DNA of 64,000 nucleotides from an uncultured Planctomycetia bacterium (GTDB lineage: Bacteria > Omnitrophota > Gorgyraeia > Tantalellales > Tantalellaceae). Where the stretch lies: the NCBI GenBank assembly GCA_964527555.1, contig CAZGOG010000006.1:276-64275 (forward strand), written 5' to 3'. Shown here piece by piece: positions 21,195-58,545 of the stretch (position 1 is the stretch's first letter; every line of letters begins with the position of its first letter). The position numbers and the translations under genes are program-made. The notes beneath the pieces are model-generated. The model was not told where the DNA came from. It saw only the letters and a list, made by a program, of their open reading frames with translations, and searched no databases.

Positions 21195-21198
21195 CTAG

Positions 21199-34609: not shown

Positions 34610-34632
34610 GACTATATTTACCCCTTATTTTT

Positions 34633-42743: not shown

Positions 42744-42986
42744 TTACTCCACATCAAACGAAAGAACCTGGACGATCGTACCCGGAAACATCGTTATCTC
42801 AAGCGAAGCATCCTCCAGCATGGTGCCCTTCGCTAAAACTTTAAAGGTTTCCCGGAATGAATCTTCCCTGACGCAGGTAAGGTTCCCCACCTTGAGTTTA
42901 ACTTTCGTCACCGTGCTTGCCCCTTCTTCTCTGGCATGTTTTTCTATTCCTTCGATTACCGGCTTTATTAAATGCGTTTCATGCAT
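42744..42986 (-). CDS. HypA-like nickel-binding domain protein lacking the zinc-finger module
   Basis: Starts MHETHL, carrying the MHE Ni-binding N-terminus. At 80 aa it has no CxxC pairs. It sits between the protease and the HypF-like gene. Confidence 0.5.
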   Translation of the reverse strand: MHETHLIKPVIEGIEKHAREEGASTVTKVKLKVGNLTCVREDSFRETFKVLAKGTMLEDASLEITMFPGTIVQVLSFDVE

Positions 42987-43500: not shown

Positions 43501-44169
43501 TTAGCCTTCTTCGTTCTCTTTCGTAGTAAGAGTGGTTTCTCTCCTACAGCGCGCGCAAAGGATCTTCACCCTGTCGGAACGGCCGTAATCCTTCATCGCG
43601 GAGATAATATTATTATCTACAATACCAAGACTTTTAAGGCGGGCTAGGTATAAGGTGGGACTTGAATAGGTCAACTCCCCTATTTTCTCAGAGATCCATT
43701 TCAGGTGATCCTTGCAGGCGATCACATCGCCGCACACCTCACAGAGCTGAAGCTCCTTCTCAATCGTCTCCTGAGCTTCACCCCTGTCAAAGAAGGCAAG
43801 ATCCCAGTCATTGGAGAGTTTAATACCTTCATTATCAGCGATACAGGCGGCTTCACACTGGCCGCAGAATATGCAGGTATCTGTATAATGGATGAGCGTC
43901 CTTTTCGGCTTTTCAGAATCAGTCTCATCCTTGTAATCAAGTGCCTCCACGGGACAGACCTGCACGCATGCAAGGCATCCCACGCACTTTTCGTCATTAT
44001 ATTTGGGTTGTCCCCGAAAGTTCTTATGCGCGACGTGCGCTACTTTAGGGAATTTAGACGTATACGGCCCTTTTATAAGCGCTTTTATCGCTTCTATAAG
44101 CTCCCTTATTTTGGGTTTCGGTATCCTCATCCTATATCTCACCCTCTTTATCTTCAGCATACCTGTCAA
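43501..44169 (-). CDS. NuoI/MbhN-like 2x[4Fe-4S] subunit of the membrane-bound hydrogenase (the start may be the internal MRIP at about 44130)
   Basis: Has two CxxCxxCxxxCP motifs (CVGCLACVQVCP, CIFCGQCEAAC) plus an extra C-terminal Cys-containing extension. Confidence 0.7.
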   Translation of the reverse strand: MTGMLKIKRVRYRMRIPKPKIRELIEAIKALIKGPYTSKFPKVAHVAHKNFRGQPKYNDEKCVGCLACVQVCPVEALDYKDETDSEKPKRTLIHYTDTCIFCGQCEAACIADNEGIKLSNDWDLAFFDRGEAQETIEKELQLCEVCGDVIACKDHLKWISEKIGELTYSSPTLYLARLKSLGIVDNNIISAMKDYGRSDRVKILCARCRRETTLTTKENEEG

Positions 44170-44467
44170 TAACGCTTTTTTCCCAGAGCTTGACTCCCGC
44201 TCTATGCGCGCCTCTTGCCACTGCGTGCGCTGCTACCGGTGCCGTCAAAAGTATGAACACTATGCAAAGAAGAGATTTAAGACCGGCTGCCGTGAACCCC
44301 ACTACCAGGAACGTCCCGAAGAGGATACTGCAAGTACCCAGCGTAACGCTTTTTGTCGCAGCCTGGAGACGGTTATATACGTCCGGCAGCCTCACCAGCC
44401 CCAGACAGCCGAAAAGGTCAAACGCAAGACCAACAGCAATAAAGACTAACCCGATAATATTACTCAT
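44132..44467 (-). CDS. mrpG: Mrp antiporter subunit G (MnhG/MbhC-like)
   Basis: A small 3-TM protein whose N-terminus IIGLVFIAVGLAFDLFGCLGLVRLPDVYNRL is typical of MnhG. Confidence 0.8.
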   Translation of the reverse strand: MSNIIGLVFIAVGLAFDLFGCLGLVRLPDVYNRLQAATKSVTLGTCSILFGTFLVVGFTAAGLKSLLCIVFILLTAPVAAHAVARGAHRAGVKLWEKSVIDRYAEDKEGEI

Positions 44468-44837
44468 CGAAACCTTTTCCTTCTAAATATTTTGAAAGTG
44501 CAAGCGTCCCTATAAAACTTTGAAGCGCCCAGGCTATACCAATGTCTATATACCATGACCTGCCGGTCGAAATCGTCAAAACGGAACAAAAACCGATTAT
44601 CATGATACCGAAAATATCTATCGCAACGATCCTATCGGCGCCTGTAGGCCCCCTGAATATGCGGTAAAGGCAAAGCGCACAGGCAAGAACCAGTATATAC
44701 ATGGCCCTGCCTAAAAACCCGACAAAGGGAAGATCAGGATAAAAAAGAAACGGAAACGGCCTTATTAGGATAAGGGTGATTATGGTAATGAGTGAAAGAG
44801 CCCCTAAGATCCATCTTAATATCTTCATGTTTTTCAA
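44460..44837 (-). CDS. mrpF: Mrp antiporter subunit F (MnhF/MbhB-like)
   Basis: 125 aa with 3 TM helices and the GPTGADRIVAIDI motif of MrpF. Confidence 0.8.
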   Translation of the reverse strand: MKNMKILRWILGALSLITIITLILIRPFPFLFYPDLPFVGFLGRAMYILVLACALCLYRIFRGPTGADRIVAIDIFGIMIIGFCSVLTISTGRSWYIDIGIAWALQSFIGTLALSKYLEGKGFDE

Positions 44838-44844
44838 TTATCCC

Positions 44845-45342
44845 TTATTCAAAGATTTTAGCTAAAATATCCTCAAACCTCTCCACAATCACTTTTGTTG
44901 CGGAAGAGACGTCTTTCTCCGTTACATTGATCCAGTGTATATAGAGAACGCCGCCCTCCCTGTCGATATCAACGCTCATGGTCCCCGGTGTAAGGGTTAT
45001 GGAATTAGCCAGAAAGGTGAGCGCCGTATCCGACTTAAGTTTAGTCTTAACCTTGACGATTCCCGGGTTTATCGGAAGCTTTGGATGCGTTACGCGATAC
45101 GCAACATCGATATTCGCTTTCAGACACTCCCATAAAAACCTCGGCACATAATAAGCTATAAAATACCAGTAACGGTGCGGGTGTTTAAGTATCTGGGGTC
45201 TGGTTATAAAAAGATCGCCCGTCGCAGCGGCGACAAAAGCTACTATAAAAACCCCGACTAAAAGATGCTGCCAGTCCGGTGGCCACGTCAGCATGCACCA
45301 TATAACAAAACCACAAACAAATAAGACTAATTTCTGTTTCAT
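44845..45342 (-). CDS. mrpE: Mrp antiporter subunit E (MnhE/MbhA-like)
   Basis: An N-terminal 2-TM region is followed by a soluble domain at 165 aa. It sits in the MrpD-E-F-G order. Confidence 0.75.
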   Translation of the reverse strand: MKQKLVLFVCGFVIWCMLTWPPDWQHLLVGVFIVAFVAAATGDLFITRPQILKHPHRYWYFIAYYVPRFLWECLKANIDVAYRVTHPKLPINPGIVKVKTKLKSDTALTFLANSITLTPGTMSVDIDREGGVLYIHWINVTEKDVSSATKVIVERFEDILAKIFE

Positions 45343-46848
45343 TTATCCGATCCCTTTGAAAACAATAGCGGCATATTTAGTTCCCTCTAAAAGGGCGTCT
45401 GCCGCCTGTGAAAGAAAATCCGTCTTTACCGCGCCCACCAGGAGAAGCCCTCCCAGAACACATATAAGCGCTAAGGCGCTCATGGCGAGTTTCATGAAGA
45501 CGGGCACCTCTTTCACCTGGTCCCATTTCTTTTTTAAGCGGTCGAAAAAGGCATATTTCATGACTTTCATGAAAGATGCAAGAGTCAATACGCTCGCTAT
45601 GACCGCCCATAAAGCGTAGCCGTAGCGCCCTGCCTGGACTGCCGCGATGATTATAATAAGCTTGCTCCAGAAGCCGTTAAAAGGCGGCACCCCCGCAATA
45701 GACATCGAAGCGATAAGACTCGTCGCTCCGGTAACGGGCATTTTCTCCGCCAGGCCGCCCATTTCCTTGAGATCACGCGTTCCCGTTGAATATTCGACAG
45801 CGCCGGAATTCAAGAAAAGCAGCGACTTAAACACGGAATGGTTAAAAAGATGAAATAACCCTCCCAGAATACCCAGCGGCGTAGCCAGGCCTATACCGAG
45901 CACTACATAACCTATCTGACTTATCGAATGATACGCAAGAAGCCTTTTAAAATCCCACTGCCCTATAGCCAGGAAAACCCCTATTACCATAGATAGCGTC
46001 CCGAGAACTAAAAGTATGGAGGAGATCTCGGCGCTCATACCGATGACATTGTACAAGATCCTGCAAAGCGCATATATACCGAGAGATTTTATGAGCACTC
46101 CCGAAAGCATCGCCGAAATAGGCGCCGGTGCGGAAGGATGGGCATCCGGGAGCCATGCATGGAACGGGACAAGCGCCGCTTTAAGCCCGAACCCCATGAC
46201 GAAGAGTACCGTTACCATCACCGTTATGTCGCCGCCGCCTTTTGCCGCAAGTACCTGCGCCATATCCGCCATATTAAGAGTGGAAGTATAACTGTACAGG
46301 AAAACAATACCCAGAAGAACGAAAAGCGAAGCCACGGTACTCATGATAGCGTACTTAAAAGCGGCTTCGAGCTCATGCTTCTCCGTCCCGAAAGCGACCA
46401 GCGCGTAACTTGCTACAGACGCTATCTCAAGAAAAACAAACAGGTTGAACATGTCGCCCGTTATAATGACCCCGTTCATCCCGGCAAGCATCAGGAGAAA
46501 CAATGAGTAAAACTTCCACTTGGAGGTATACTTTTCCATATAATTTATCGAAAAAACAGCTATTATAAAAGCGACCAGGTTCACCGTGACCAGCATGAAC
46601 GATGTCAGCCCGTCCAGCACCATGGCGATACCAATGGGAGGTTTCCAGGCACCGACGCTATATACCAAAGTACCGTTCTGGTTTACGACCCAGACCGATA
46701 CAAGCGAAAGCGCCATGAGAGCTAAAGTAAACACCCCTCCCGTCAGGTCGGGCGCCCACTTCACCTTTTTGCCTATAAGCGGCAGGAGGAACGCCCCGGC
46801 CAGAGGCAGTGCGACAAAAAGCGGTATTATATTAGATGCCGGCATCAT
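45343..46848 (-). CDS. mrpD: Mrp antiporter subunit D (NuoN/MbhH-like proton-pumping subunit)
   Basis: A 501-aa polytopic protein of the NuoL/M/N family (WLPDAHPSAPAPISAMLSG). Confidence 0.85.
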   Translation of the reverse strand: MMPASNIIPLFVALPLAGAFLLPLIGKKVKWAPDLTGGVFTLALMALSLVSVWVVNQNGTLVYSVGAWKPPIGIAMVLDGLTSFMLVTVNLVAFIIAVFSINYMEKYTSKWKFYSLFLLMLAGMNGVIITGDMFNLFVFLEIASVASYALVAFGTEKHELEAAFKYAIMSTVASLFVLLGIVFLYSYTSTLNMADMAQVLAAKGGGDITVMVTVLFVMGFGLKAALVPFHAWLPDAHPSAPAPISAMLSGVLIKSLGIYALCRILYNVIGMSAEISSILLVLGTLSMVIGVFLAIGQWDFKRLLAYHSISQIGYVVLGIGLATPLGILGGLFHLFNHSVFKSLLFLNSGAVEYSTGTRDLKEMGGLAEKMPVTGATSLIASMSIAGVPPFNGFWSKLIIIIAAVQAGRYGYALWAVIASVLTLASFMKVMKYAFFDRLKKKWDQVKEVPVFMKLAMSALALICVLGGLLLVGAVKTDFLSQAADALLEGTKYAAIVFKGIG

Positions 46849-47183
46849 CCCTTTAACTCCCTGATCTTTGTGATATCAAAAGTACCGTATTTTTCATAGA
46901 TCCTCATCGCGATACCCACAAGTAACGCGGTAGTCGCAAGTCCTATGACAATAGAGGTAAGCACGAGCGCCTGCGGCAGCGGGTCCACCATGTTCTTTAT
47001 TTCTTCGCCGCTTGAGAAGATAGGCGCGCGTCCATTCACTCTATAGCCCGCGAGTATGAAAAAGAGGTTAACCGCGTATTCCAGTATGATCACACCGATT
47101 ATCATCTTTATGACGTTGCGTTTTCTCACTATACAGTAAATACCGATAACGAAAAGTACCAGACACAGAAAATAAATGCTCAT
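46845..47183 (-). CDS. mrpC: Mrp antiporter subunit C (NuoK/MbhG-like)
   Basis: 112 aa with 3 TM helices and the conserved Glu-containing motif ILEYAVNLFFILAG. Confidence 0.85.
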   Translation of the reverse strand: MSIYFLCLVLFVIGIYCIVRKRNVIKMIIGVIILEYAVNLFFILAGYRVNGRAPIFSSGEEIKNMVDPLPQALVLTSIVIGLATTALLVGIAMRIYEKYGTFDITKIRELKG

Positions 47184-47632
47184 TTTTTCTTCCCTACATC
47201 AAGTTTTAATAGTATCAGTGCCACAAATATCGCGAAAATCCCGGCTCCCACTTTGAAACTTATGGCAATATTGCAAAGCGGGATAATACCCGCGCTGAAA
47301 AGCCTGAAAGGCTCACCTTTCGGTATAAAATTCAAAAAGAAATATCCTCCCGTAAAACCTAAAAGCGCTATAGAGAGAAATAGTATCGCGCCGGTACTTT
47401 CCCAGATGGAGGCTCGTGCCTCGGAAAGCTTCTTAAAGGCGACTTCTTTACCATATGCCAGTATTAGGTGTATAAAAGACAGCGCAATGATAACACCGCC
47501 GGCAAAACCGCCTCCCGGTGAAAGATGCCCGTGAGTGACGATATAAACCCCGTAAAGAAAGATGATCCCTACCGTTAGACGCGTGATCGTCTTGACTATA
47601 AGCGACATGCCTTTTTCATGTTCCCTACTCAT
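47180..47632 (-). CDS. mrpB: Mrp antiporter subunit B-like (MnhB domain, MbhF-like)
   Basis: The motif THGHLSPGGGFAGG is the MnhB signature. Confidence 0.8.
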   Translation of the reverse strand: MSREHEKGMSLIVKTITRLTVGIIFLYGVYIVTHGHLSPGGGFAGGVIIALSFIHLILAYGKEVAFKKLSEARASIWESTGAILFLSIALLGFTGGYFFLNFIPKGEPFRLFSAGIIPLCNIAISFKVGAGIFAIFVALILLKLDVGKKK

Positions 47633-48173
47633 CGCTTGCTTTTACCTCTTCTCCTGCTTTTTTTCTGCCAATGCGTCTTACAATCGCCAGAACCCCTATA
47701 ACAGCGGTAAACAGAATCGTCGCCTCACCCAGCGTATCGTAAGCCCTGAAGTCCAATATGACGGAAGAGACAAGGTTGACAGCTCCCGTTTTTGGAAGAC
47801 CTTCCGCCAGATATGTCTTAGCTACCCGCATCGCCGGATATCCGAACTCGGGCAGATCCTTAAGGCATTTCATGGCTACCGCCATAAACAAAACTATGAA
47901 ACATGCTGTAATAAGAGTGTTTAAAAACCACCTGCCGGTCGTTGAAAACGGAAGATCCTTCTTAAGCGTCGCTCTTATAAGGATTATGAGCGCCAGTATC
48001 TCTACCACAAGCTGCGTAATAGCCACGTCCGGCGCTTTGAGTATCAAGAACACTATGGAAAGCGCCAAACCGACCGCACCTACCGCTATAACAGCCGAAA
48101 GCAGGTCTTTTAGCTCGATCGCGACGATCGCGCCTATAATCATCAAAACAAGTAAAACGTAAAGCTCTACCAT
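47625..48173 (-). CDS. MrpA C-terminal-region-like membrane subunit (MbhD/E-like)
   Basis: 182 aa and hydrophobic. It sits between the NuoL-like MrpA core and MrpB, as in Mbh-type operons. Confidence 0.6.
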   Translation of the reverse strand: MVELYVLLVLMIIGAIVAIELKDLLSAVIAVGAVGLALSIVFLILKAPDVAITQLVVEILALIILIRATLKKDLPFSTTGRWFLNTLITACFIVLFMAVAMKCLKDLPEFGYPAMRVAKTYLAEGLPKTGAVNLVSSVILDFRAYDTLGEATILFTAVIGVLAIVRRIGRKKAGEEVKASDE

Positions 48174-48180
48174 ACTCTTC

Positions 48181-49821
48181 CTACTTCAAAAGAATATAAA
48201 AAAGGACACCCATCCCCAATAAACACCAGGCCAGATACGTAAGAAGCACGCCGTTATGGATATATCGCAGCACTTTATTGAATCCAAGCGTAATTTTAAC
48301 ACCGACCTCATATATATCAAATACTTTTCTCCCGGCAAGCCGGTAGATAAACTGCAAAACGCCTATGTCTCTGATGGTGTCGTAAAACTCGGTCCCGGAA
48401 GGTCGCATCTCCGGATGCTTTTCCAGAATCTCCCCGCCTACAAAAGGTTCAGCGGTCCTCGTCTTAAAAGCAGTGCCTGCCAGATAGATCAAAAATCCTA
48501 TTATAACGCCTACGATTATAAGAGCGGTAGCCAGTCCCGAACTCCATATACCGGTAAAGTTCGCTGCGCCCCCCAGGCTCGGGAATATGAACATCTTAAG
48601 CGGCACCTGGTAAGCAAAAATACCGAAAATAACACACAGTGCCGCTAATATCACCGAGGGGACCCACATGGTAGAACCTGCTTCGCCTTTAAGCTTTTTC
48701 CTGCCGGAGGCGGGCCTTCCCAGAAAAACGGCATGCACTAGTTTCATGAAACTTGCCAGTGTAAGGGCGCTGCCGAACATCGCCGCGACGATCCATACTA
48801 CCCAGAACTTATCCCCTGCTTTAGCCGAGTCTATTATCCCCTGGTAAATCATCCATTTGGAAGCAAATCCGTTAAAAGGCGGTACGCCTGAAATGGAAAA
48901 AGCGGCTATTAAAAACGCTACAAAAGTTATGGGCATAACCCTCGCAAAACCCCCGAGTTTTCCCAGGTCAACGGTACCCGCTTTCTTCTCGACCGATCCG
49001 CCCGAGAAAAACAGGCAGGATTTATAAATCGCATTATTGAGCATGTGAAACACACCGCCGGCAATACCGATGGGGTTACCCGTACCTATACCCAGAACCA
49101 TGTACCCGACCTGGCTTACGGCGTGATACCCCAAGAGCCTTTTCATGTCGTGCTGGATAAGCGCCATCATTACCGCGGCAACTATCGTGACGCTTCCCAT
49201 TACCATCAAAAAGGTGTTCATGCCCTTATCCATCTGGAAGACATCAAGAGAGATTCTCGCAAGAAAATATATGCCTAACAGTTTATCCAAAGAAGCCGGC
49301 AGAAACGCAGTCACAGAAGTCGGGGCGTCTTCCGCGACATCAGGTACCCATGTATGGAAAGGCATGGCGCCTGCTTTTGCGAACGCGCCCGAAGCCAGAC
49401 ATAGATACGCCAGGACTGCAGCTTTAGTATTAAGAGCAATACTCATCTTGTCTATCTCGAAAGTCCCCGTAAGATGCCAGATGATACCAAGCCCCAGGAG
49501 CATAAAAGCATCCGTACCGCCGATTATGATAAAAGTTTTTTTAGCCGTGTAGGCGGCACTATCTTTCCGGCTAAAACCGATCAAAAGATAAAGTAAAAGC
49601 GCCAAAAATCCCCAGAAAACTATAAAAAGCACCAGATTGTTGGAAAAGACCGCTCCTAAAGAAGCTAAAAACGTAAGGATGATATAGCTGTAGTAGCGCA
49701 GTAAACCTTTCCTTCCGCGCATAAAACCGATGGAGTAGAGAATCGTCAGAGCGGAGAACACGCTGACGAATATCGCTACAAAAATCGACAAATTATCTAA
49801 TCTAAAGAGTCCATCCGTCAC
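48181..49821 (-). CDS. mrpA: MrpA/NuoL-like antiporter core subunit
   Basis: A 546-aa polytopic protein of the NuoL family (WVPDVAEDAPTSVTAFL, HAVSQVGYM). Confidence 0.85.
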   Translation of the reverse strand: MTDGLFRLDNLSIFVAIFVSVFSALTILYSIGFMRGRKGLLRYYSYIILTFLASLGAVFSNNLVLFIVFWGFLALLLYLLIGFSRKDSAAYTAKKTFIIIGGTDAFMLLGLGIIWHLTGTFEIDKMSIALNTKAAVLAYLCLASGAFAKAGAMPFHTWVPDVAEDAPTSVTAFLPASLDKLLGIYFLARISLDVFQMDKGMNTFLMVMGSVTIVAAVMMALIQHDMKRLLGYHAVSQVGYMVLGIGTGNPIGIAGGVFHMLNNAIYKSCLFFSGGSVEKKAGTVDLGKLGGFARVMPITFVAFLIAAFSISGVPPFNGFASKWMIYQGIIDSAKAGDKFWVVWIVAAMFGSALTLASFMKLVHAVFLGRPASGRKKLKGEAGSTMWVPSVILAALCVIFGIFAYQVPLKMFIFPSLGGAANFTGIWSSGLATALIIVGVIIGFLIYLAGTAFKTRTAEPFVGGEILEKHPEMRPSGTEFYDTIRDIGVLQFIYRLAGRKVFDIYEVGVKITLGFNKVLRYIHNGVLLTYLAWCLLGMGVLFYILLK

Positions 49822-50430
49822 TTAGCTGCTCTCCTTTGATACCCTTGCGATGTTCGTGCAATGACGGGCTATGTTACCCGTGAAATCCAACATATCAAAA
49901 TACATGTTCGACGCTCGCGCCTGGCATATACCTTTAGTAAGGCGTTCAAGATGCGCACTTCTTGCCTTTTCAACCAGTTTCTTGATCACGTCTCCATTGG
50001 CCAGGATCTCGTCTAAAAGTCCCGGATTCCCGGTATTTAGAAATTTCACTAAGAGGTCCACTGACTTTTTCATCGTATTAAACACTTCTTTATATTGGGA
50101 TGAACCTTCTTCGCTGAACTGGAGCCTGTCTGAAATTTTGATCTCAATACGCTCAACCAGAGAACGAAACTCATCCCCCATACGTTCCAGGTTCTGGGCG
50201 ATCTGCCCCCAAACGACAAGTTTTTTCTTGGCGGCCTCATCGAGTTTTTTGGAAAGCGCCACGATATCGGCAATGATCTCCTCTTCGATAGCGTCCAGTT
50301 CTCGTTCTTTGCCGAGAACACCGTCAAGTATATGTATATCGTTTTTATCAAGACCGCTGTATGTGATATCTACCATCTCTTTAACGATCGCGGCCATCTC
50401 CCGGGCTGATTTTTTTATTTTGTCGTTCAT
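49822..50430 (-). CDS. PhoU-like/DUF47-type helical protein embedded in the hydrogenase operon
   Basis: It is all-helical, and MLDFTGNIARHCTNIARV plus LERMGDEFRSLVERIE resemble PhoU repeat motifs (D..GD...nIaE). It is translationally coupled on both sides. Confidence 0.45.
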   Translation of the reverse strand: MNDKIKKSAREMAAIVKEMVDITYSGLDKNDIHILDGVLGKERELDAIEEEIIADIVALSKKLDEAAKKKLVVWGQIAQNLERMGDEFRSLVERIEIKISDRLQFSEEGSSQYKEVFNTMKKSVDLLVKFLNTGNPGLLDEILANGDVIKKLVEKARSAHLERLTKGICQARASNMYFDMLDFTGNIARHCTNIARVSKESS

Positions 50431-51605
50431 CTTTTCCCCCGTCTGATCCTTTCGGTCTTCTCCTGTGAAAGCCTGATAAGCTCTTCACCGTTATAAAGCT
50501 TCTTTCCTTTAATATCCCGCACGGCCATCCTTTCCGTGCAACAATAACACGGGTCTATAGCTGCCAGGATAATCGTAGTATCGGCAATAGTCTCGCCTAT
50601 CACAGTAGACTTATAAGTCGGCAGATTCATAAAGGTCGGGGCCCTTACCTTGTGCCTCTCAGGGCTGTTAGTACCGTCGCTCCTCACATAATGAAACGTC
50701 TCGCCCCTGGGGGCCTCGATGTGGCCTATACCTTCTCCCGGGGGGATGCTTTTGATATTGGCGTCTATTTCCCCCGATGGAAGGTTTTTAAGGCAGTACT
50801 TCATTATCTTATGGGACTCGAACATCTCAAGCACTCTTACAACAACCTTATCAAAAACATCCCCGGTTTCGGTGACTATCATATCCCAGTCTAATCTGTC
50901 ATAAGCTCCATAGGGAGAATCTTTTCGAACGTCCCTGGCGACTCCGGAAGCACGTGAAGTGGGACCCAAAGCAGAATAGTCTATGGCTTCTTCCTTTGTA
51001 AGAATACCTACGCCTTTCGTCCGCGCGTGCAGTACCGGGTCATCCATAACGGCTTTCCTTAGCATCTCAAGCGTAGGGACGATAGAATCTATTTTCTTTA
51101 TAGACGCCTCAATATCCTCAGGGGCAAAATCCCTCCTTACCCCGCCCGGTTTAAACATCGCATAGTTATTTCTGTTGCCGGAAAGTATCTCCATGACGTC
51201 CAGGATCTCTTCCCGGAGTTTCCAGGCCCACATGTAAACGGTATTATAACCCAAGAAATGCCCCGCAAGACCAAGCCATAAAAGATGAGAGTGCAGCCTT
51301 TCCCCTTCAGCGATCACGGTCCTTATGAACTTGGCTCTTTCGGGCACTTCCATCGGGATGATATCCTCAACCGCCCTCGTATAAGCATAGGGATGGCTTG
51401 TCGAGCATATGCCGCAGATCCTTTCAATAACAAAAGTGGACTGATCAAACGTCTTCATCTCGGACAGTTTCTCTATACCCCTATGGTTATACCCGACCTG
51501 GACGTCGACATCTACTACTTTCTCACCTTCTACCGTAAGGGTGAAAAACTCGGGTTCCTCCTGCAGCGGGTGATACGGTCCTATTGGTACAATTGTTTTC
51601 GCCAT
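50427..51605 (-). CDS. Group 4 [NiFe]-hydrogenase large subunit (EchE/MbhL/HycE-like). Start placed at MAKTIVPIGPY.
   Basis: ERICGICSTSH is the N-terminal RxCGxCxxxH Ni-Fe ligand motif and DPCYCCTER the C-terminal DPCxxCxxR motif. A roughly 33-aa C-terminal extension is left for the endopeptidase. Confidence 0.9.
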   Translation of the reverse strand: MAKTIVPIGPYHPLQEEPEFFTLTVEGEKVVDVDVQVGYNHRGIEKLSEMKTFDQSTFVIERICGICSTSHPYAYTRAVEDIIPMEVPERAKFIRTVIAEGERLHSHLLWLGLAGHFLGYNTVYMWAWKLREEILDVMEILSGNRNNYAMFKPGGVRRDFAPEDIEASIKKIDSIVPTLEMLRKAVMDDPVLHARTKGVGILTKEEAIDYSALGPTSRASGVARDVRKDSPYGAYDRLDWDMIVTETGDVFDKVVVRVLEMFESHKIMKYCLKNLPSGEIDANIKSIPPGEGIGHIEAPRGETFHYVRSDGTNSPERHKVRAPTFMNLPTYKSTVIGETIADTTIILAAIDPCYCCTERMAVRDIKGKKLYNGEELIRLSQEKTERIRRGKR

Positions 51606-51609
51606 TTTT

Positions 51610-52104
51610 TTATTTTGGTTTTTTGTTTTTTTCGATGCCACGATCCCTGACAGCTTGCGGATCCCATTCTTCATAATCTGCCCTGAGCGGGTAAACCCCT
51701 TCGGGCCAGTCCTCCGGAAGGAGAAGCCTCCTGAGATCGGGGTGCCCCTTAAAATTAACGCCTAAAAGTTCATGTATCTCTCTTTCTATCCAGTCCGCGG
51801 CCTTGAAATGCGGCGCTAAAGAATCTATCTCAAGCTTGTCTTTTGCCAGCTTCACCCGTAGTGAAATCAATAGATTTATGTCCTCGACAGTGAAATGATA
51901 CAGGATCTCTATATAGTCCCGTGCGTCCCTTCCCGTAGCTATGTTAAAACGCGCTTTCTGGTCCTTGAAAATATAAGTGGCCACCTTGACCAAGGATTTC
52001 GGCTTGATCTCGATGTACACTCTTTTCCGGGTCTTATCGAAAATATCGATAATATCTGCCTTGAACTTCTTCGTGAGATCTTTTAATATTTCTTCTCGAT
52101 TCAT
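51610..52104 (-). CDS. NuoC/EchD-like hydrogenase subunit
   Basis: A 164-aa NuoC (30 kDa subunit)-like sequence (ERE..E.LG..F.GHPD.RRLL). Confidence 0.8.
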   Translation of the reverse strand: MNREEILKDLTKKFKADIIDIFDKTRKRVYIEIKPKSLVKVATYIFKDQKARFNIATGRDARDYIEILYHFTVEDINLLISLRVKLAKDKLEIDSLAPHFKAADWIEREIHELLGVNFKGHPDLRRLLLPEDWPEGVYPLRADYEEWDPQAVRDRGIEKNKKPK

Positions 52105-52544: not shown

Positions 52545-53486
52545 TTATCTTCCTATTAGTGCCAATACCACCGCGACTATCGCAATCACCGTCATCGGTC
52601 CCCAGAAAAACTTAACGGCCTGATCTATCCTTACCCTGGGATTCGTGTTTCTTATGACCGTTATAAGCGCCACAAGTCCTATATATTTGAGGATGCCGTA
52701 TAGAAAGTGCACTCCATCAAGTCTTAACCCGCCCATGTAAAGTATCATCAAAAAGAAAGGCAGCGTGAAAAGAAGCATGTTCTTCATGAGGCGGAAAACT
52801 GCCAAAGGCGCGCCGGAATATTCTATTAAAACTCCTCCTCCAAGCTCGGTCTCGGCTTCGGGTATATCAAACGGCACAAAAGCAAGTTTTGCCTGCACGC
52901 TCATGATCGCAACGACGAGCGCCAAAGTGCCGGATAAACTTCCCGCCACCACACCGTTTTCTGCCTGAGAAGTAAGTATGTCCCCCAGTCTGATCGCATA
53001 ATCGGATTTAATAACGGGAACCAGTACCGCAAGTACAAATGGCAGCTCATAAGCAAGTATCATCTTCATCTCACGGGAAGCGCCTATACTCGCCAGCGGG
53101 TTTGCCGAGGCAAAACCACCTATTATGATACTTATCGAGGGGATGGTAAGCAGGTATATCGCAACGATTATATCCCCCATAAAACCTTTACCCACCCATA
53201 TATCATTGACCCACAAGAGGGCTGAGACCACCATTACGCTCGATATGCCCAGAACAGGCGCCAGTAAAAACGTCTGTTTTGAGGCCCCCGCGGGGACTAA
53301 AGTCTCTTTACCCAACAGCTTGATTATATCGATAAGCGGCTGAAGAAGAGGCGGCCCCACGCGATACTGCACGCGTGCAGTGACTTTCCTGTCAATCCAG
53401 CTTGCCAGAAGCCCTATTACGGCTGTCAGTAAAAATCCAAAAAATAGCAGATAAAACACGTTTCTCATGCTTTTTCCCTGTCCCAA
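52545..53486 (-). CDS. NuoH/EchB/MbhM-like membrane subunit
   Basis: A 313-aa polytopic protein of the NuoH family (RVQYRVGPPLLQPL, ETELGGGVLIEYSG). Confidence 0.85.
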   Translation of the reverse strand: MGQGKSMRNVFYLLFFGFLLTAVIGLLASWIDRKVTARVQYRVGPPLLQPLIDIIKLLGKETLVPAGASKQTFLLAPVLGISSVMVVSALLWVNDIWVGKGFMGDIIVAIYLLTIPSISIIIGGFASANPLASIGASREMKMILAYELPFVLAVLVPVIKSDYAIRLGDILTSQAENGVVAGSLSGTLALVVAIMSVQAKLAFVPFDIPEAETELGGGVLIEYSGAPLAVFRLMKNMLLFTLPFFLMILYMGGLRLDGVHFLYGILKYIGLVALITVIRNTNPRVRIDQAVKFFWGPMTVIAIVAVVLALIGR

Positions 53487-54028
53487 TGCGTGGAATGAAC
53501 TATTATGTTGTCACCCACGAAAAAGGTGTTTTCATCGAGCGCGATATCCCCGCTTTTTAAGCTTAACGCCCCGTAAGGGCACGTCTTTATACATAACGGT
53601 TCATCTTTTTTGTCTCTTCTATCCAGGCAGAAATCACAGTTATGGACCAGATACGGTACTAGTTCAGGATAAATGGTCCCGTAAGGGCATGCATGAGAAC
53701 ATGACCCGCAGCTTATGCATCTCATGTTATGCCGCATAAGAAAATTATCCTTGTCTTCCTGCTGCTCGAGCGCCTCTACCGGACAGGAAGCGACGCAATG
53801 CGGATCTTCGCATCTCCTGCATACAAGAGCGTAAGTGGCAAGTTCCGCTACCGAAAGGATCCCGTTATTTCCGGTCTGGCGATGATAAAGATAACTGCAT
53901 TTAATTACGCATTCTTTACATTCGCCTGACGCGCAGACATCGAGGTCGATGAAGAGCCTCTTGTCTTTGCCTTTTTTGGGCTCGGTGTTTACGTTACCCT
54001 GATGCACCTGTTCCGCGCTAGTTGCCAT
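53465..54028 (-). CDS. HycB-like polyferredoxin (multiple [4Fe-4S])
   Basis: Has four Cys clusters (CKECVIKC, CRRCEDPHCVASCP, CISCGSCSHACP, CDFCL...CIKTCP) at 187 aa. Confidence 0.75.
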   Translation of the reverse strand: MATSAEQVHQGNVNTEPKKGKDKRLFIDLDVCASGECKECVIKCSYLYHRQTGNNGILSVAELATYALVCRRCEDPHCVASCPVEALEQQEDKDNFLMRHNMRCISCGSCSHACPYGTIYPELVPYLVHNCDFCLDRRDKKDEPLCIKTCPYGALSLKSGDIALDENTFFVGDNIIVHSTHWDREKA

Positions 54029-54043: not shown

Positions 54044-54880
54044 TTAATCCCAGATCCCGTGAAAGTCCTTTATCTTATCATATGTAAAGACCGGGCCGTC
54101 TTTACACGCATAATAAGTACCTAGCCTGCAGTGCCCGCATTTCCCTATACCGCAGGACATGTTCTTCTCCATGGAAAGATAGATGTTCCCTTCTTTAAAT
54201 CCCAGTTCCAAGAGCTTCATGGTCGCAAACTTCATCATTATAGGAGGACCGCAGACAACCGCGATAGCCGTAGGATAGTGCATGTCGATATCGTCCAGGA
54301 TCGTCGTGACAACTCCGACGTTACCTTTCCATTTATCGTCACCGGCATCGACCGTAAGTTTAAGGTTCAAGTCGTCCCTTTCGGCCCATTCCTCTGTCTG
54401 ATCTTTATATACCAGTTCTTTCGGGGTTTTACACCCGCCTCTAAAATAGAGTTTTTTAAATTTGCCGCTTCTATCAAAAAACTCGTACATAAGGCTTCTT
54501 AAAGGCGCGAAACCGCACCCCCCGCCTACCACTAATATCTCTTTGCCTTCGAAGTCATCCACCGGATACCCAGTTCCAAAAGGACCCCTTACCCCGATTA
54601 TATCGCCTTTTTCGAGTTCGTGGATCTTATCAGTGACTTTTCCCACCTTCATGACGCTCACTTCCATTATATCCCTGACCGAAGGTTTCGATGACGGGGT
54701 AAACGGCGCTTCCCCCACTCCGGGAATGGTTATCTCCACGAACTGACCCGTCTTAAAGGTTATCTCCTCTTCCGGCTTGAACCTTATGGTCTTTATAGTC
54801 GGGGTCTCCGTTATAACGTCAAGGACTTCCGCCTTTATGGGCCTGTATGGATTCTCGCATGGAGACTTACTTTTTGCCAT
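54044..54880 (-). CDS. AsrB/HydG-family FAD- and NAD(P)H-binding subunit with a C-terminal [2Fe-2S]
   Basis: Has the PyrK-like flavin-reductase fold (RFKPEE..F..GQF, VVGGGCGFAPLRS) and a C-terminal CGIGKCGHCRLG cluster motif, at 278 aa. Confidence 0.8.
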   Translation of the reverse strand: MAKSKSPCENPYRPIKAEVLDVITETPTIKTIRFKPEEEITFKTGQFVEITIPGVGEAPFTPSSKPSVRDIMEVSVMKVGKVTDKIHELEKGDIIGVRGPFGTGYPVDDFEGKEILVVGGGCGFAPLRSLMYEFFDRSGKFKKLYFRGGCKTPKELVYKDQTEEWAERDDLNLKLTVDAGDDKWKGNVGVVTTILDDIDMHYPTAIAVVCGPPIMMKFATMKLLELGFKEGNIYLSMEKNMSCGIGKCGHCRLGTYYACKDGPVFTYDKIKDFHGIWD

Positions 54881-55910
54881 CAGTATCTACCAATCTTCTT
54901 AAAACCTTTCTGATATCTATCTTCGCAGGGCATGCCGAGATGCAGCGTCCGCATCCCGTGCAAGCGTATACTTCAGAGACTTTCGGAAAAAAATCGAATT
55001 TCTTCACAAACCTGTTACGAAGGCGCTGGTAGAGTTTACCCCTGGGATTATGTCCCCCGGCGACCTTAGCGTATTCTTTCAGCATACATGAATCCCAGAT
55101 GCGCAGACGCGCCATCTTATCTTCGCTTTTCTGGTCATAGAGAAGAAAGCAGTGACATGTCGGGCATATTATGGTGCACGCTCCGCATTCGACACAGGTC
55201 TCCGCTTCGCTCGTCCATATATCGGATTCAAAGTTCCTTTCGATGATATTTTCAAATACGTCCTGACGTGGAACGTTGTTTTCCTTGATATTATTTTCGA
55301 CCTGTTTTGTGACGCTTTCCCTTACCTTGTCCCTTGCTTTAATAAGCCCGCTTGCTGCCTCCTCGAAAAAGGAAGAGTTTTTATCTATAATCTTCTTCCC
55401 CTTATCCGATCCGGCCTCAACAAGATACCCGCCTTCCGTCTCGGAAAGATTAATATCAAAATTCTCTTTCGGGTAAGGATCCACCCCCACCGCAAGGCAG
55501 AAACATGTATCGATCGCCAGGGTACAATCAGACGAGATGATGAGGTTCTCTTCCCTCAGCTTGATATAAATAGGGTCCTTGTAATCATGGTCCAGAAAGA
55601 CATGGTCCTGGATTTTAAAGCCTTTAAGGTCACATGCTTTAACGCCTACTATTGCAAAAGGTTTGTCGGCAGCGTGAGGAGCTCCTTTTTTGAAATCTTC
55701 GGCGACGACCTCTCTTGCGCGTGAGAAAAAAGCCTTAAGCGGCTCGAAGGGACGCACCTCACCTATAACGATTTTCTCGGCCTCTTTCGTATACTCTTTA
55801 TAGAAACGTTTCTCGCCCTTTTTGACGGGTACGAAAACACGGAAGTCTTCCTTTAAAGAATCCAGGAAAAGCGGAAATTTTTCACTTGATATGTGTTTTA
55901 TATCACTCAT
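54867..55910 (-). CDS. AsrA/HydB-family iron-sulfur subunit
   Basis: Has CVECGACTIICPTCHCF and CTGCGRCISACP ferredoxin-type motifs. Its 347 aa match the AsrA/sulfhydrogenase-beta size class. Confidence 0.75.
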   Translation of the reverse strand: MSDIKHISSEKFPLFLDSLKEDFRVFVPVKKGEKRFYKEYTKEAEKIVIGEVRPFEPLKAFFSRAREVVAEDFKKGAPHAADKPFAIVGVKACDLKGFKIQDHVFLDHDYKDPIYIKLREENLIISSDCTLAIDTCFCLAVGVDPYPKENFDINLSETEGGYLVEAGSDKGKKIIDKNSSFFEEAASGLIKARDKVRESVTKQVENNIKENNVPRQDVFENIIERNFESDIWTSEAETCVECGACTIICPTCHCFLLYDQKSEDKMARLRIWDSCMLKEYAKVAGGHNPRGKLYQRLRNRFVKKFDFFPKVSEVYACTGCGRCISACPAKIDIRKVLRRLVDTDGKK

Positions 55911-55916: not shown

Positions 55917-56546
55917 TTATTTCTTATTCACCAGGAAATACGACAGCGTTTCCAGCTCCCTTGAAAGATCAACGTCTTTTACTTTTACCTCTTCCGGCAC
56001 GTTTAAAGCGACCGGCGCGAAGTTCAGGATACATTTAACGCCTGACGAAACCAGTTTATCCGCTACGTCCTGCGCGTTCTCGGCATCAACGGTTATAACC
56101 CCTATGGATATCTTGTTAGCCGCTACCCGCTTGGCAAGTTCACTTAAGGGCTCAACCGTTATCCCTCCGAGGCGCTTGCCGATCTTACTGGCGGATGCAT
56201 CGAACGCTGCCACTATCTTTAAACCGTGTTTTTCAAATCCGGAATATGAAAGCAGCGCTGAACCCAGATGCCCCACTCCCAGCACGGCAACGTTCCAGGT
56301 CTTGTCTTTACCGAGTATTTTCTCTAAAGCTTTTTTCAGTTCGCCCGTATTATAACCCGAACCGCTTACCCCGAACTGCCCGAAATAACCGAGATCTTTT
56401 CTTACCTGCGCATCACTTAGGTTCACTTTCTCGCCCAGCTCCGCTGAAGAGATCGTTTTTATGTCCAGATCAACCAGCTCGGTGATTTTCCTCAAATATA
56501 TGAAAAGCCGTGTTATAGTGCCCTCTGGCACTTTTTTTCCGTTCAT
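55917..56546 (-). CDS. rex: Redox-sensing transcriptional repressor Rex
   Basis: An N-terminal wHTH (ITRLFIYLRKI) is followed by a Rossmann fold with VAVLGVGHLGSALL, at 209 aa. A Rex operator lies in its own 5' UTR. Confidence 0.9.
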   Translation of the reverse strand: MNGKKVPEGTITRLFIYLRKITELVDLDIKTISSAELGEKVNLSDAQVRKDLGYFGQFGVSGSGYNTGELKKALEKILGKDKTWNVAVLGVGHLGSALLSYSGFEKHGLKIVAAFDASASKIGKRLGGITVEPLSELAKRVAANKISIGVITVDAENAQDVADKLVSSGVKCILNFAPVALNVPEEVKVKDVDLSRELETLSYFLVNKK

Positions 56547-56567: not shown

Positions 56568-56585
56568 TTGTGATAATATTCACAA
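56568..56585 (-). promoter_or_regulatory. Rex operator (TTGTGA-taatat-TCACAA)
   Basis: Read directly. It is a perfect match to the canonical Rex box TTGTGAAnnnnnnTTCACAA core, lying 22 nt upstream of the rex ATG and downstream of the predicted -10. Confidence 0.7.
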
Positions 56586-56590: not shown

Positions 56591-56634
56591 GTTCTTAAAT
56601 TCACAAATATAATACTTTTATACCGGGATGTCAA
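56591..56634 (-). promoter_or_regulatory. Candidate sigma70 promoter of the rex-hydrogenase operon (TTGACA-N17-TATATT), with a Rex half-site (TTGTGAA) overlapping the -10/TSS
   Basis: Read directly on the minus strand. The -35 is at plus 56629-56634 and the -10 at 56606-56611. TTGTGAATTTAAGAAC lies at 56591-56606. Confidence 0.45.
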
Positions 56635-56694: not shown

Positions 56695-58545
56695 TTATCC
56701 TTTACCGAAACGTTTCCTTTGAGCCAGAAGTATTATGTTACGCAGGTCCTCCCCGTCTTTCGCGTTTATCCATTTATTCTCGAAAGTCGGGTCCTGTGCG
56801 ATCTGGGCGATAGCCGATAGCGCTCTTAAATGGAAGTTCCTTTCATCCCGCGTACCCGCTATCACAAAAACCATATGAACTTTTTGATCCGCCTCGGGGA
56901 ACACAATACCTTCCTTACAACGCGCAAGCAGTATAAGGAACCTGTGATCACCCTCGATTATTATGTGAGGTATGGCTAAACCGGGGCTCAAGACGGTGCT
57001 GCTTTGCTCTTCCCTGTCCAGTAATAGCCTGAGAATGACCAGATCTTTGATGCCGAGTTTTTGTGACATTTTCTCCGCCGCCAGCTTGAAAAATTCACCC
57101 GACGGCAGGGATTTATCGATGTCCAGAACGATTGCTTCTTCGATTATCCCGTCAAACCTGTCTTTTATTATTTCGTCTCTTTCACGGATTATTTCTCTTA
57201 GTTCCGACTCCAAAGAAAGGTCCACGAACTCTCTTGCCGCTACTCTTTCAATAAGATGCAAAAGAGCAAAATCTTTTTTTGTCCTTTGACGCCCGTAAAA
57301 CCAGAATACAGCTATCCCGCATGCAAAAAGGATAGAGCTTATAAAAAGAGCTTCTTTTCCCATATTAACCACTAAGAGCCAGCAACCGAAAACGCCTATA
57401 ATCTGCAGCCAGGGATATAAAGGCGCACGGAACTGGGGCTGATAATTCTTCACGCCGCTTTCTCTCATTATAATCACACAGATACATGACAAGATAAAAG
57501 TAAAGATAAGAACGGTAGAGGCCACCTCCACCAGTATCTTTAGATCCAGAAAAAGCGCAGCGATCATGATAATACCTGTTGCGAGTATAGCAACGTCCGG
57601 AGTCTTAAAGGTGCGGTTGATACTTCCGAATAAGTTTGGCAAGAGGCCATCCCGGCTTAACGCCAGAGGATACCTGGAAGCGGACATGATCCCGGCATTT
57701 ACGGTTGATACGAACGCCAGGATAGCCGCAATACCGAGTGCAATTTTCCCTGCTGCACCCATAAAAACAACCGCGCCGTCGGAAATGGGAGTAAGCGAGT
57801 GATCAAGCTGCTCGGCTCCCAGCACACCGGAGGTCACAAAAATGACCAGCGTGTAAAGTATACTAACTGAGGCAAAAGACAATATCATCCCCATCGGCAC
57901 AACTTTACCCGGATTTTTTACCTCTTCCGCAATACTGGCAACCTTTAATAGCCCTCCATATGAGATAAACACAAATCCCGCGGTAGAAAATATCGCAGCT
58001 ATTCCCCGCGGCGCAAAAGGCGTAAAGTTCTGGATTTTGACTTCCGGCAGGCCGCGTATCCCGTAAAAAATAAGCAATGCCAGGAGCACAACTACGATAA
58101 AAACCTGGACCCTGCCTGCTTCCTTTATACCGATAAAATTGATAACAAGGAAGAAGATACAAAATATCACACCCAGTATATGCACATCAATATTCGAAAA
58201 AAGACTCGCAAAAGCGGCCATACCGACAAGCGCAAACGCACCTTTTAAAGATACGGATAGCCACGTTAAAAGCCCGTTAATTGTCGCAACCACAGGCCCC
58301 ATACTGCGTGCGACATAAAAATAAGTTCCCCCCGCCTTAGGCATCGCTGAAACCAGTTCCGCCTGGCTCAACATACCGGTCATCGCCAGTAACCCCGCTA
58401 AAAAATAGGAGACAACGACTGAAGGCCCTGCCAGGGCATGGGCTAACCCCGGCAGAATAAAAAGACCCGAGCTTATCATCGCGCCGGTCGCAACGCAAAA
58501 AACGTCTAAGAGGTTCAGTTCTTTTTTTAATTTTGGTTTTTCCAT
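56695..58545 (-). CDS. APC-superfamily amino acid permease fused to a C-terminal PTS EIIA-2 (PtsN/EIIA-Ntr-like) domain
   Basis: The N-terminal roughly 430 aa have 12 TM helices and an APC GGxYxY-like motif (PKAGGTYFYV). The C-terminal roughly 150 aa carry the EIIA-2 phosphohistidine motif (SPGLAIPHIIIEG). Confidence 0.7.
   Translation of the reverse strand: MEKPKLKKELNLLDVFCVATGAMISSGLFILPGLAHALAGPSVVVSYFLAGLLAMTGMLSQAELVSAMPKAGGTYFYVARSMGPVVATINGLLTWLSVSLKGAFALVGMAAFASLFSNIDVHILGVIFCIFFLVINFIGIKEAGRVQVFIVVVLLALLIFYGIRGLPEVKIQNFTPFAPRGIAAIFSTAGFVFISYGGLLKVASIAEEVKNPGKVVPMGMILSFASVSILYTLVIFVTSGVLGAEQLDHSLTPISDGAVVFMGAAGKIALGIAAILAFVSTVNAGIMSASRYPLALSRDGLLPNLFGSINRTFKTPDVAILATGIIMIAALFLDLKILVEVASTVLIFTFILSCICVIIMRESGVKNYQPQFRAPLYPWLQIIGVFGCWLLVVNMGKEALFISSILFACGIAVFWFYGRQRTKKDFALLHLIERVAAREFVDLSLESELREIIRERDEIIKDRFDGIIEEAIVLDIDKSLPSGEFFKLAAEKMSQKLGIKDLVILRLLLDREEQSSTVLSPGLAIPHIIIEGDHRFLILLARCKEGIVFPEADQKVHMVFVIAGTRDERNFHLRALSAIAQIAQDPTFENKWINAKDGEDLRNIILLAQRKRFGKG

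Follow-up and report, generated by a model that had tools for sequence, protein, structure and literature searches.

A Hun-type [NiFe] hydrogenase operon from an Omnitrophota-lineage bacterium and the case for NADH as the donor to its HunAB pair

In this work, we analyzed a 64,000-nucleotide stretch of DNA (the window) from an uncultured Planctomycetia bacterium with an Omnitrophota lineage in GTDB (GenBank assembly GCA_964527555.1, contig CAZGOG010000006.1, positions 276 to 64,275), and specifically two overlapping genes at 54044-55910 on its minus strand, hunA and hunB. In gene content, gene order and motifs, the operon that holds them is a further representative of the "Hun" operons of Glass et al. 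(bioRxiv 10.1101/536078), which encode a 16-subunit Ni-Fe hydrogenase-Na+/H+ antiporter supercomplex that was predicted and never purified. The association of hunAB with a hydrogenase had thus already been described and named, and the window locus is a new member that carries in addition a rex gene and a PhoU-domain gene. The homology, cofactor motifs, synteny and operator sequence that we observed lead us to consider it fairly probable that Hun works as an NADH-linked, ion-gradient-coupled, H2-evolving redox valve. To the wider proposition, that Hun is not ferredoxin-coupled but NADH-dependent and ion-gradient-coupled, with HunAB as a third independently recruited hydride-input module beside NuoEFG and FpoF, we would give about even chances. 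The published assignment of the donor is probably wrong, and the argument from sequence and structure for this is new here. The two genes are:

54867-55910, minus strand: hunA, an AsrA/HydB(beta)-like iron-sulfur subunit of 347 aa (Pfam Fer4_22)
54044-54880, minus strand: hunB, an AsrB/HydG(gamma)-like FAD, NAD(P)H and [2Fe-2S] subunit of 278 aa (Pfam FAD_binding_6, NAD_binding_1, DHODB_Fe-S_bind)

Both open reading frames are as described in the initial annotation, made from the letters of the window, namely a 347-aa protein with two ferredoxin-type Cys clusters and a 278-aa protein with FAD and NAD domains followed by a [2Fe-2S] motif. Independent gene calls on a JGI metagenome contig with an identical HunB (Ga0309773_1000204, 144.9 kb) gave the same lengths for the two proteins. 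The genes overlap by 14 nt (ATGGCAAAAAGTAA, 54867-54880), one more than the 13 nt first annotated, and the 15-nt spacing annotated between hunB and the next gene is correct and includes an AAGAGG ribosome-binding site. A search with HunB, limited to one genome per species, returned 563 relatives, of which the best 80 loci (57-85% identity to HunB) were analyzed; their gene content was determined by tblastn with all window proteins, the denominators given below are the loci in which the contig allows the question, and the taxon labels are those of the record titles, some of which may be wrong as a result of automated binning. Over these 80 syntenic loci and hundreds of database proteins, the genes are conserved at 57-94% identity. 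Both hunA and hunB are real genes, with a conservation far beyond chance.

The cofactor motifs are nearly invariant. HunA contains, in addition to two CxxCxxCxxxCP clusters, seven other cysteines, and all 15 are invariant in an alignment of 75 sequences; its sole hydrophobic window in a hydropathy scan is a Cys-rich segment. The C-terminal end of HunB carries the [2Fe-2S] motif CGIGKCGHCRLG...C, of which C243, C248 and C259 occur in all 80 sequences aligned and C251 in 79 of them. The nucleotide-binding features G120-G121-x-G123-x-A125-P126, CGPP (CGPPxM) and D178 are present in 80/80 sequences from about eight phylum labels, and G119 in 79/80. The binding of NAD(P)H by HunB is read from these motifs and from the predicted fold described below. 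The pair had been annotated as NAD(P)H-binding as a whole; within it, nucleotide binding is predicted for HunB alone, and HunA is an Fe-S protein.

Profile searches against the AsrA/AsrB and HydB/HydG families proposed in the initial annotation gave matches to all of them, in every case under the curated NCBIfam cut-off. HunA scored 202 bits against ShyB (cut-off 690), 180 against HydB (750) and 135.9 against AsrA (TIGR02910, 323.15), and HunB scored 243.9 against AsrB (TIGR02911, 288.6), 200 against HydG (650) and 188 against ShyC (600); the 230 bits obtained with "cytochrome-c3 hydrogenase gamma" are also under the cut-off. Because all scores lie under the cut-offs, neither protein is an equivalog of a named family member: as judged from these profiles, HunA and HunB are members of the superfamily and equivalogs of neither AsrAB nor HydBG/ShyBC. 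At the family level, in turn, the annotation is supported. HunA aligned end to end with the beta subunit of Pyrococcus furiosus sulfhydrogenase I (SHI; 9nez_B, E 1.4e-47, 35% identity) and HunB with the gamma subunit (9nez_C, E 5.6e-59, 38% identity). The AlphaFold2 model of HunB (pLDDT 83, pTM 0.84) superposed best on the NADPH-bound SHI gamma subunit (9nf0_C, TM 0.87), the next closest folds being NADH-cytochrome b5 reductases, NqrF and PyrK. The name AsrAB/HydBG-type is therefore appropriate for the family and not for the equivalog.

Which nucleotide HunB would prefer was examined at the position recommended by its fold. In the model, D178 closes strand 171-177 of the NAD domain on its C-terminal side, and its aligned counterpart in human NADH-cytochrome b5 reductase is the Asp of "YTLD". 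This Asp is the NADH-specificity determinant D239, and its replacement reportedly converts the b5 reductase to NADPH use. The NADPH-preferring SHI gamma subunit has Thr-Arg at the place of D178. Since D178 matches the NADH-type Asp and SHI gamma differs from it, NADH is the likelier partner of HunB, a call that we make with moderate confidence. A phmmer alignment of HunB with NqrF shifts by one position between targets, so that this comparison is only suggestive. An NADPH-type reading based on the basic residues R147 and K/R151, which follow strand 2, was set aside, because in the FNR family the 2'-phosphate/ribose determinant is found after strand 3.

The genomic context of the pair is uniform among the related loci. 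Most of the 80 loci are labelled Candidatus Omnitrophota, and the remaining labels include Atribacteria, Elusimicrobia, Hydrogenedentota, Spirochaetota, Aegiribacteria/Fermentibacteria, NC10, Desulfococcus (Desulfobacterota) and the isolate Desulfosarcina variabilis str. Montpellier (L059). Closed genomes with hun include CP070797.1, CP070780.1 and NZ_CP159846.1, the last being that of D. variabilis, with the locus around 6.09-6.11 Mb. The gene hunA lies directly upstream of hunB in 74/74 loci, a hunC ferredoxin gene directly downstream in 74/74, and the [NiFe] large subunit within 5 kb of hunB on the same strand in 57/59, the two exceptions being a scaffold gap and a contig in which the content changes. 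The overlap between hunA and hunB is kept in 68/73 loci, and of the 36 loci with a complete set of 16 genes, 34 have them in the order of the window. Furthermore, the hydrogenase subunits and HunB co-vary in their identities (Spearman 0.53-0.76). Such synteny and co-variation form the pattern expected of the subunits of one enzyme, and not of an independent AsrAB. They support the annotated partnership with a membrane-bound hydrogenase core, with the correction that the core is not directly downstream: the next gene encodes a soluble ferredoxin.

An AsrAB with its catalytic partner elsewhere was considered and rejected in view of the universal synteny, the translational overlap and the failure to find AsrC among the scanned open reading frames of the window. 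The Pfam scan of the window covered all open reading frames of at least 200 aa, the majority of the shorter ones in the list (130 aa or more), and every smaller gene that belongs to the operon. As the initial annotation had proposed, neither an AsrC-like protein nor a soluble hydrogenase partner was found among these; no NIR_SIR/AsrC-like protein is adjacent in the 80 loci either, and the scanned window contains no second hydrogenase, the nearby hydrogenase subunits being only of the group-4 NuoB/NuoD-like type.

Where the label is Spirochaetota, the Mrp genes have changed their place or orientation, and hunABC stay joined to hunEFG (NuoB/C/D-like). In these loci (L029, L037, L046, L047, L052, L056, L060 and L072) the NuoI-like gene and hycI come directly after the large subunit, and the NuoH-like and Mrp genes follow later or lie divergently upstream. 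Three other loci depart from the common arrangement: the gene content of L025 (12900-18922) changes after the NuoB-like gene, no recognizable Mrp genes were found after hunG in L030 (6500-13012, at the start of a "chromosome" record), and L006 is interrupted by 100 N. Assembly artefacts may be the cause, or the operons may really be truncated.

Downstream of the pair, the operon continues with the following structural genes, for which the letters H to P were given by gene order after the published description:

53465-54028, minus strand: hunC, HycB/CooF/DmsB-type ferredoxin of 187 aa with 16 Cys (4 x [4Fe-4S]); Pfam Fer4_11
52545-53486, minus strand: hunD, NuoH/MbhM-like membrane subunit with eight hydrophobic segments; Pfam NADHdh, 213 bits
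52105-52542, minus strand: hunE, NuoB-like hydrogenase small subunit; Pfam Oxidored_q6, NCBIfam NuoB family
51610-52104, minus strand: hunF, NuoC-like subunit; Pfam Complex1_30kDa
50427-51674, minus strand: hunG, group-4 [NiFe] hydrogenase large subunit; Pfam Complex1_49kDa, NiFeSe_Hases
49822-50430, minus strand: PhoU-domain gene, 202 aa, accessory and outside the published 16-gene Hun set; Pfam PhoU in two stretches
43501-49821, minus strand: hunH-hunP, Mrp-type membrane module and HycF/NuoI-like subunit by Pfam and NCBIfam, made up of the genes below
48181-49821, minus strand: MrpA/NuoL-like, 546 aa (Pfam/NCBIfam)
47625-48173, minus strand: MbhD+E (Pfam/NCBIfam)
47180-47632, minus strand: MnhB (Pfam/NCBIfam)
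46845-47183, minus strand: MnhC/NuoK (Pfam/NCBIfam)
45343-46848, minus strand: MrpD-like, 501 aa (Pfam/NCBIfam)
44845-45342, minus strand: MnhE (Pfam/NCBIfam)
44460-44837, minus strand: MrpF (Pfam/NCBIfam)
44132-44467, minus strand: MnhG (Pfam/NCBIfam)
43501-44169, minus strand: HunP, HycF/NuoI-like with 2 x [4Fe-4S], 222 aa; best NCBIfam scores HycF and HyfH, not NuoI

Between 43501 and 55910 there are thus 16 Hun-type structural genes plus the extra PhoU-domain gene, and the genes of the operon abut or overlap throughout. The likely start of hunD is at 53468, which gives 307 aa, also the length of the JGI call, and that of hunG at 51605, which gives 392 aa. HunG contains the motifs RICGICSTSH and DPCYCCTER, found in 60/61 and 56/61 related loci, respectively, and its top PDB sequence matches are MbhL (6cfw_L, 9e-89) and HycE (7z0s_E, 3e-84). 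All features of a group-4 Mrp-linked hydrogenase are present: a NuoD-like large subunit with the four [NiFe] cysteines, NuoB/C/H/I-like subunits, the Mrp module and a processing protease. A simple hydropathy scan confines the membrane segments to the NuoH-like and Mrp-like proteins; in HunC it found no hydrophobic segment, in agreement with a soluble protein, and each of the 16 HunC cysteines is at least 96% conserved in the related loci.

In the published description, HunAB are AsrAB-like, the ferredoxin is HunC, the hydrogenase module consists of HunEFGP and the remainder is Mrp-like; HunG, which has the motifs CGIC...CYCC, stands far from the other 4g sequences, and the operon was reported in metagenome-assembled genomes (MAGs) of Atribacteria, Firmicutes, Omnitrophica, Elusimicrobia and Bacteroidetes and in Kosmotoga isolates (Glass et al.). 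Neither NAD(P)H nor Rex comes up in that paper. The window operon shares with it the gene content and order, the CGIC...CYCC motifs of HunG, the absence of asrC and the HydDB class 4g, a label that we take from the literature on relatives. It differs in the rex gene and Rex operator in front and in the PhoU-domain gene after hunG, and the evidence presented here points to NADH where the published donor is ferredoxin. The assembly of Hun into one H2-evolving, Na+/H+-moving membrane supercomplex is a prediction, in the source paper as well as here.

Some features of individual subunits deserve a mention. The ends of HunC outside the ferredoxin domain are conserved across phylum labels (N-terminal "SAEQ/ELHxG..N" and C-terminal "ENTFxVGD...HSTHW", in L039, L046, L048, L050, L059 and L067), and these peptides are candidates for docking onto HunA or HunP. 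At its C-terminus, HunP is extended by about 80 aa, in which additional Cys pairs (CEVCGDVIAC ... CARCRRE) may form another metal site. The PhoU-domain gene sits between hunG and the first Mrp-like gene, with a 4-nt overlap upstream and abutting the next gene; the same insertion occurs at the same position in only four related loci (L003, L026, L045 and L051), and elsewhere in L078.

The pair had been placed at the head of the operon, a position that is occupied by rex, the first cistron, with the promoter and operator upstream of it:

55917-56546, minus strand: rex, NADH/NAD+ redox-sensing repressor; NCBIfam Rex, 258 bits against a cut-off of 126
56606-56634, minus strand: sigma-70-like promoter, -35 TTGACA, 17 nt, -10 TATATT; a consensus match only
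56568-56585: predicted Rex operator, TTGTGAATATTATCACAA on the coding strand, with 1 mismatch to TTGTGAA-N4-TTCACAA

The rex stop codon lies 6 nt before the hunA ATG. The promoter, in the 148-nt intergenic region upstream of rex, matches the consensus in 11 of 12 positions and is the best in the 14.5 kb scanned. About 20 nt downstream of it lies the predicted Rex operator (consensus from PMC2883068, PMC6391272 and PMC13077300), the sole site with one mismatch or fewer in the 64 kb, with none found in 100 shuffles. An isolated second half-site, TTGTGAA at 56600-56606 (minus strand), lies right next to the -10 hexamer, some 15 nt upstream of the complete operator, and the related locus L001 has two full Rex boxes before rex. 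Inside the operon, terminators and promoters are no more numerous than in shuffles, and none was found in the 15-nt gap between hunB and hunC. A rex gene (66-77% identity) is found directly before hunA in about 14 related loci, and weaker Rex-like matches in about six more. The 80 loci (1.17 Mb) contain 25 Rex boxes with two mismatches or fewer, of which 24 lie 24-52 nt before rex or a weak homologue, or 24-175 nt before hunA where there is no rex. In Omnitrophota-type loci, this places the operon in the predicted Rex regulon. NADH releases Rex from DNA, and for this reason the expression of the operon should rise with the NADH/NAD+ ratio.

From the evidence above we infer complex formation, the identity of the donor, the direction of the reaction and the coupling to ions as follows. 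Hun would be a 16-subunit complex in which a Mrp-linked group-4 [NiFe] hydrogenase receives electrons through a soluble arm of three proteins, HunABC. NADH would deliver a hydride to the FAD of HunB, from which single electrons would pass through the [2Fe-2S] cluster of HunB, the [4Fe-4S] clusters of HunA and the four clusters of HunC to the two clusters of HunP, the cluster of HunE and the [NiFe] site of HunG, where protons would be reduced to H2. This path is proposed because of the homology with SHI beta/gamma, with HycB/HycF of formate hydrogenlyase and with MBH (membrane-bound hydrogenase); by analogy, the HycB-like HunC and the HycF/HyfH-like HunP may represent the formate hydrogenlyase way of docking a soluble dehydrogenase. 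The standard potentials (E0') are -320 mV for NAD+/NADH and -414 mV for H+/H2, and the formation of H2 from NADH is uphill under standard conditions. With these values, the reaction would have to be paid for by an inward flow of Na+/H+ through the membrane arm or would work near equilibrium at the very low H2 pressure of syntrophic settings. The same machine could run backwards, and the reverse reaction could conserve energy; the H2-evolving, NADH-consuming direction is favored by the Rex signal. The operon would be switched on as NADH/NAD+ rises, acting as an overflow valve for NADH in a fermenting or acetogenic Omnitrophota-like cell. The hydrogenases of the Ace Lake Omnitrophota MAGs support an NAD(P)-linked role for Hun: each MAG has exactly one, of the 3d, 3b, A3 or "4g" type, and the first three of these are NAD(P)-linked.

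Several observations weigh against NADH-driven H2 evolution. The literature search found no biochemical work on Hun, and the only paper that models the complex has ferredoxin feeding HunABC (Glass et al.). The association of HunAB with the membrane complex is deduced from gene order only. The preference for NADH over NADPH, a check that the initial annotation had suggested and that came out as NADH-type, depends on a single aligned residue, D178, and the alignment with NqrF shifts by one position. NADH-driven H2 formation cannot also pump ions outward, yet the operon has a full Mrp module, such as serves for energy conservation in relatives driven by ferredoxin, formate or CO. No Rex box with two mismatches or fewer was found in the Spirochaetota, Hydrogenedentota, Fermentibacteria and Desulfosarcina loci. 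Finally, since the Ech of Caldicellulosiruptor, which is ferredoxin-dependent, and the CODH/ECH of Parageobacillus are under Rex control as well, the operator argues for the disposal of reductant and leaves the choice of direct donor to other evidence.

Some of these points return as support for the published model, in which reduced ferredoxin is the donor, HunABC serve as a relay, H+/Na+ moves outward as in Pyrococcus MBH and the NAD domain of HunB is idle. In addition to having been put forward by Glass et al., this model agrees with the entry of HydDB for 4g, in which coupling to ferredoxin is given as putative and the role as undetermined; the reduction of protons by ferredoxin is exergonic and would account for the complete Mrp module, its control by Rex would have the precedents just mentioned, and the polyferredoxins HunC and HunP could dock ferredoxin directly. 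It would make the FAD and NAD domain superfluous, yet all 80 sequences keep the nucleotide-binding motif and D178, and the solved homologue of HunB binds NADPH (9nf0). In MBH (6CFW), ferredoxin enters at the NuoI-like subunit without a flavoprotein arm, which also counts against it, and the premise that AsrAB takes its electrons "from ferredoxin" is at odds with the domain content of AsrB; we regard ferredoxin as a rather unlikely donor. The opposite direction, with H2 oxidized at HunG, NAD+ reduced at HunB and about 18 kJ/mol used to export Na+/H+, would supply NADH to acetogenic Omnitrophota. It is downhill under standard conditions and would give a use to the full ion-translocating arm, beta-gamma modules of the SHI type are reversible, and many Omnitrophota with "4g" enzymes are predicted acetogens (Wood-Ljungdahl). 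Against this, a Rex operator predicts that the operon is induced once NADH has risen, which does not suit an enzyme that reduces NAD+, the characterized group-4 enzymes mostly evolve H2 and in-situ H2 is usually very low, so that we hold NAD+ reduction as the main direction to be unlikely.

That HunAB is a reductase of sulfur compounds (polysulfide/S0, or sulfite with a partner elsewhere), merely co-transcribed with the hydrogenase or part of an MBS-like complex, seems to us very improbable. Annotation pipelines do call HunB "sulfite reductase subunit B" (the JGI annotation, also for homologues including P0009, P0016 and P0017), the AsrB score comes near its cut-off (244 vs 289) and genome papers have taken such genes as "sulfhydrogenase". 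In contrast, HunA is far under the cut-off for AsrA (136 vs 323), AsrC/NIR_SIR was not found among the Pfam-scanned open reading frames of the window or inside the conserved operon, and the synteny with hydrogenase genes is universal in the sample. Moreover, HunG keeps the four [NiFe] cysteines and is accompanied by a HycI protease, as in a true hydrogenase and not in an MBS-like enzyme. Electron bifurcation or confurcation was also considered and was dropped, as only one flavin site is predicted, and this site is of the non-bifurcating NfnA/PyrK type.

Several known systems resemble Hun in part. With SHI beta/gamma (9NEZ, 9NF0), HunAB share full-length homology, the Cys ligands, the FAD/NAD fold, the [2Fe-2S] motif and the proposed position as the pyridine-nucleotide end of a hydrogenase. 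The partner of SHI beta/gamma, however, is a soluble group-3b alpha/delta pair, whereas that of HunAB would be a membrane-bound group-4 enzyme, with a HycB-like ferredoxin in between; in place of the Thr-Arg of SHI gamma, HunB has Asp, and the HydB/HydG and ShyB/ShyC cut-offs are far from being reached. The group 4b hydrogenases of Thermococcus onnurineus, dependent on formate or CO, and the formate hydrogenlyase of Escherichia coli (7Z0S) show the same succession of a soluble dehydrogenase, a HycB/CooF polyferredoxin and a HycF-like subunit, and the former also have a Mrp module. Their input is a molybdopterin formate dehydrogenase or a Ni-CODH and not a FAD/[2Fe-2S] and Fe-S pair, and the donor couple proposed for Hun, that of NADH, lies at a more positive potential than H+/H2, which is not the case for formate or CO. 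Complex I (NuoEFG) and the F420H2 dehydrogenase (FpoF) likewise place a hydride-carrier dehydrogenase on a scaffold of NuoB/C/D/H/I and antiporter-like subunits. The Hun input is unrelated to theirs, being a FNR/PyrK-type FAD protein in contrast to the FMN protein NuoF, and its acceptor would be H+ at the [NiFe] site instead of quinone or methanophenazine.

The resemblance to Salmonella AsrABC consists of the order A-then-B of the genes, of AsrB as the top NCBIfam score of HunB and of the match of HunA to AsrA; it differs in that both scores are under the cut-off, the sirohaem subunit AsrC was not found and the genomic partner is a hydrogenase. A Mrp-linked group-4 hydrogenase region with cooF-, asrA- and asrB-like genes, suggested to form an "oxidoreductase module", has also been described in Saganbacteria RX5A (Matheus Carnevali et al. 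2019, PMC6349859). It is similar in these three genes, and its nearest hydrogenases are from Zixibacteria and Omnitrophica, but RX5A has a molybdopterin oxidoreductase that is absent here and no donor was proposed for it.

Following the structural genes, the operon continues with genes for hydrogenase maturation:

42979-43464, minus strand: hycI, protease (Pfam HycI)
42744-42986, minus strand: HypA-like open reading frame of 80 aa, which starts MHETH
41662-42732, minus strand: hypF, C-terminal half only, 356 aa (Pfam HypF_C, HypF_C_2)
41415-41654, minus strand: hypC, N-terminus MCLAVPA
40397-41413, minus strand: hypD (Pfam HypD)
39385-40377, minus strand: hypE (Pfam AIRS)

The HypA-like protein (42744-42986) and HypC (41415-41654) are presumably so, being named from sequence features. 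The hypF gene encodes the Kae1-like C-terminal half without the acylphosphatase, zinc-finger and YrdC parts, and the 80-aa open reading frame before it resembles a HypA shortened at its C-terminus. Either the missing parts of HypF and HypA are encoded elsewhere, or maturation is carried out by truncated proteins. Outside the operon, the Pfam-scanned open reading frames of the window fall under nitrogen assimilation, permeases, kinases and housekeeping. A nitrogen-assimilation cluster on the minus strand (19800-36759) encodes glutamate dehydrogenase, a PPDK_N-domain protein, the small and large subunits of glutamate synthase, an ammonium transporter, a GAF-ANTAR regulator and a type III glutamine synthetase. 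One open reading frame of the window, 32773-33621, gave no match in Pfam. The gene upstream of the operon promoter (56695-58545, minus strand, 616 aa) codes for an amino-acid permease that carries a PTS EIIA-2 domain at its C-terminal end, and it is also the neighbor of the operon on the other contigs with an identical HunB.

Besides the argument about the donor, the present analysis adds to the earlier description of Hun a Rex operator that is conserved, a connection with the SHI structure, newly solved, and a second cultured host, D. variabilis str. Montpellier, which together with Kosmotoga (Glass et al.) makes the donor question directly testable. Hun-type operons occur in at least 80 species-level genomes of the collection searched, and the groups named in their labels count among the major ones in anoxic sediments, groundwater and digesters. 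In genome papers on Omnitrophota, Cloacimonadota, Auribacterota and Hyd24-12, these enzymes appear as "group 4g, Mrp-linked" with ferredoxin assumed as the donor, sometimes with a "sulfhydrogenase" listed separately, and metabolic reconstructions now depict Hun as a ferredoxin-driven, energy-conserving producer of H2. In some reconstructions hunB is also taken as a marker of sulfite reductase or sulfhydrogenase. There are also consequences for marker genes. In a published survey, sulfhydrogenases were counted at 35% identity or more to ShyC, a threshold that HunB, with 38% to SHI gamma, may pass, and counts based on AsrB or ShyC in anoxic metagenomes probably include Hun operons. If Hun is NADH-dependent, such counts of sulfite reducers and sulfhydrogenases would be inflated, and the HydDB label "4g, ferredoxin-coupled" would be wrong for a large clade.

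With NADH as the donor, Hun would consume ion-motive force, or exchange it reversibly, in order to balance NADH, and the predicted ATP yields, H2 thresholds and models of syntrophy would change. Cells without bifurcating hydrogenases would then be able to vent NADH as H2 by spending Na+/H+ motive force, in Omnitrophota under the direct control of Rex, or, alternatively, to gain energy from the H2-dependent reduction of NAD+.

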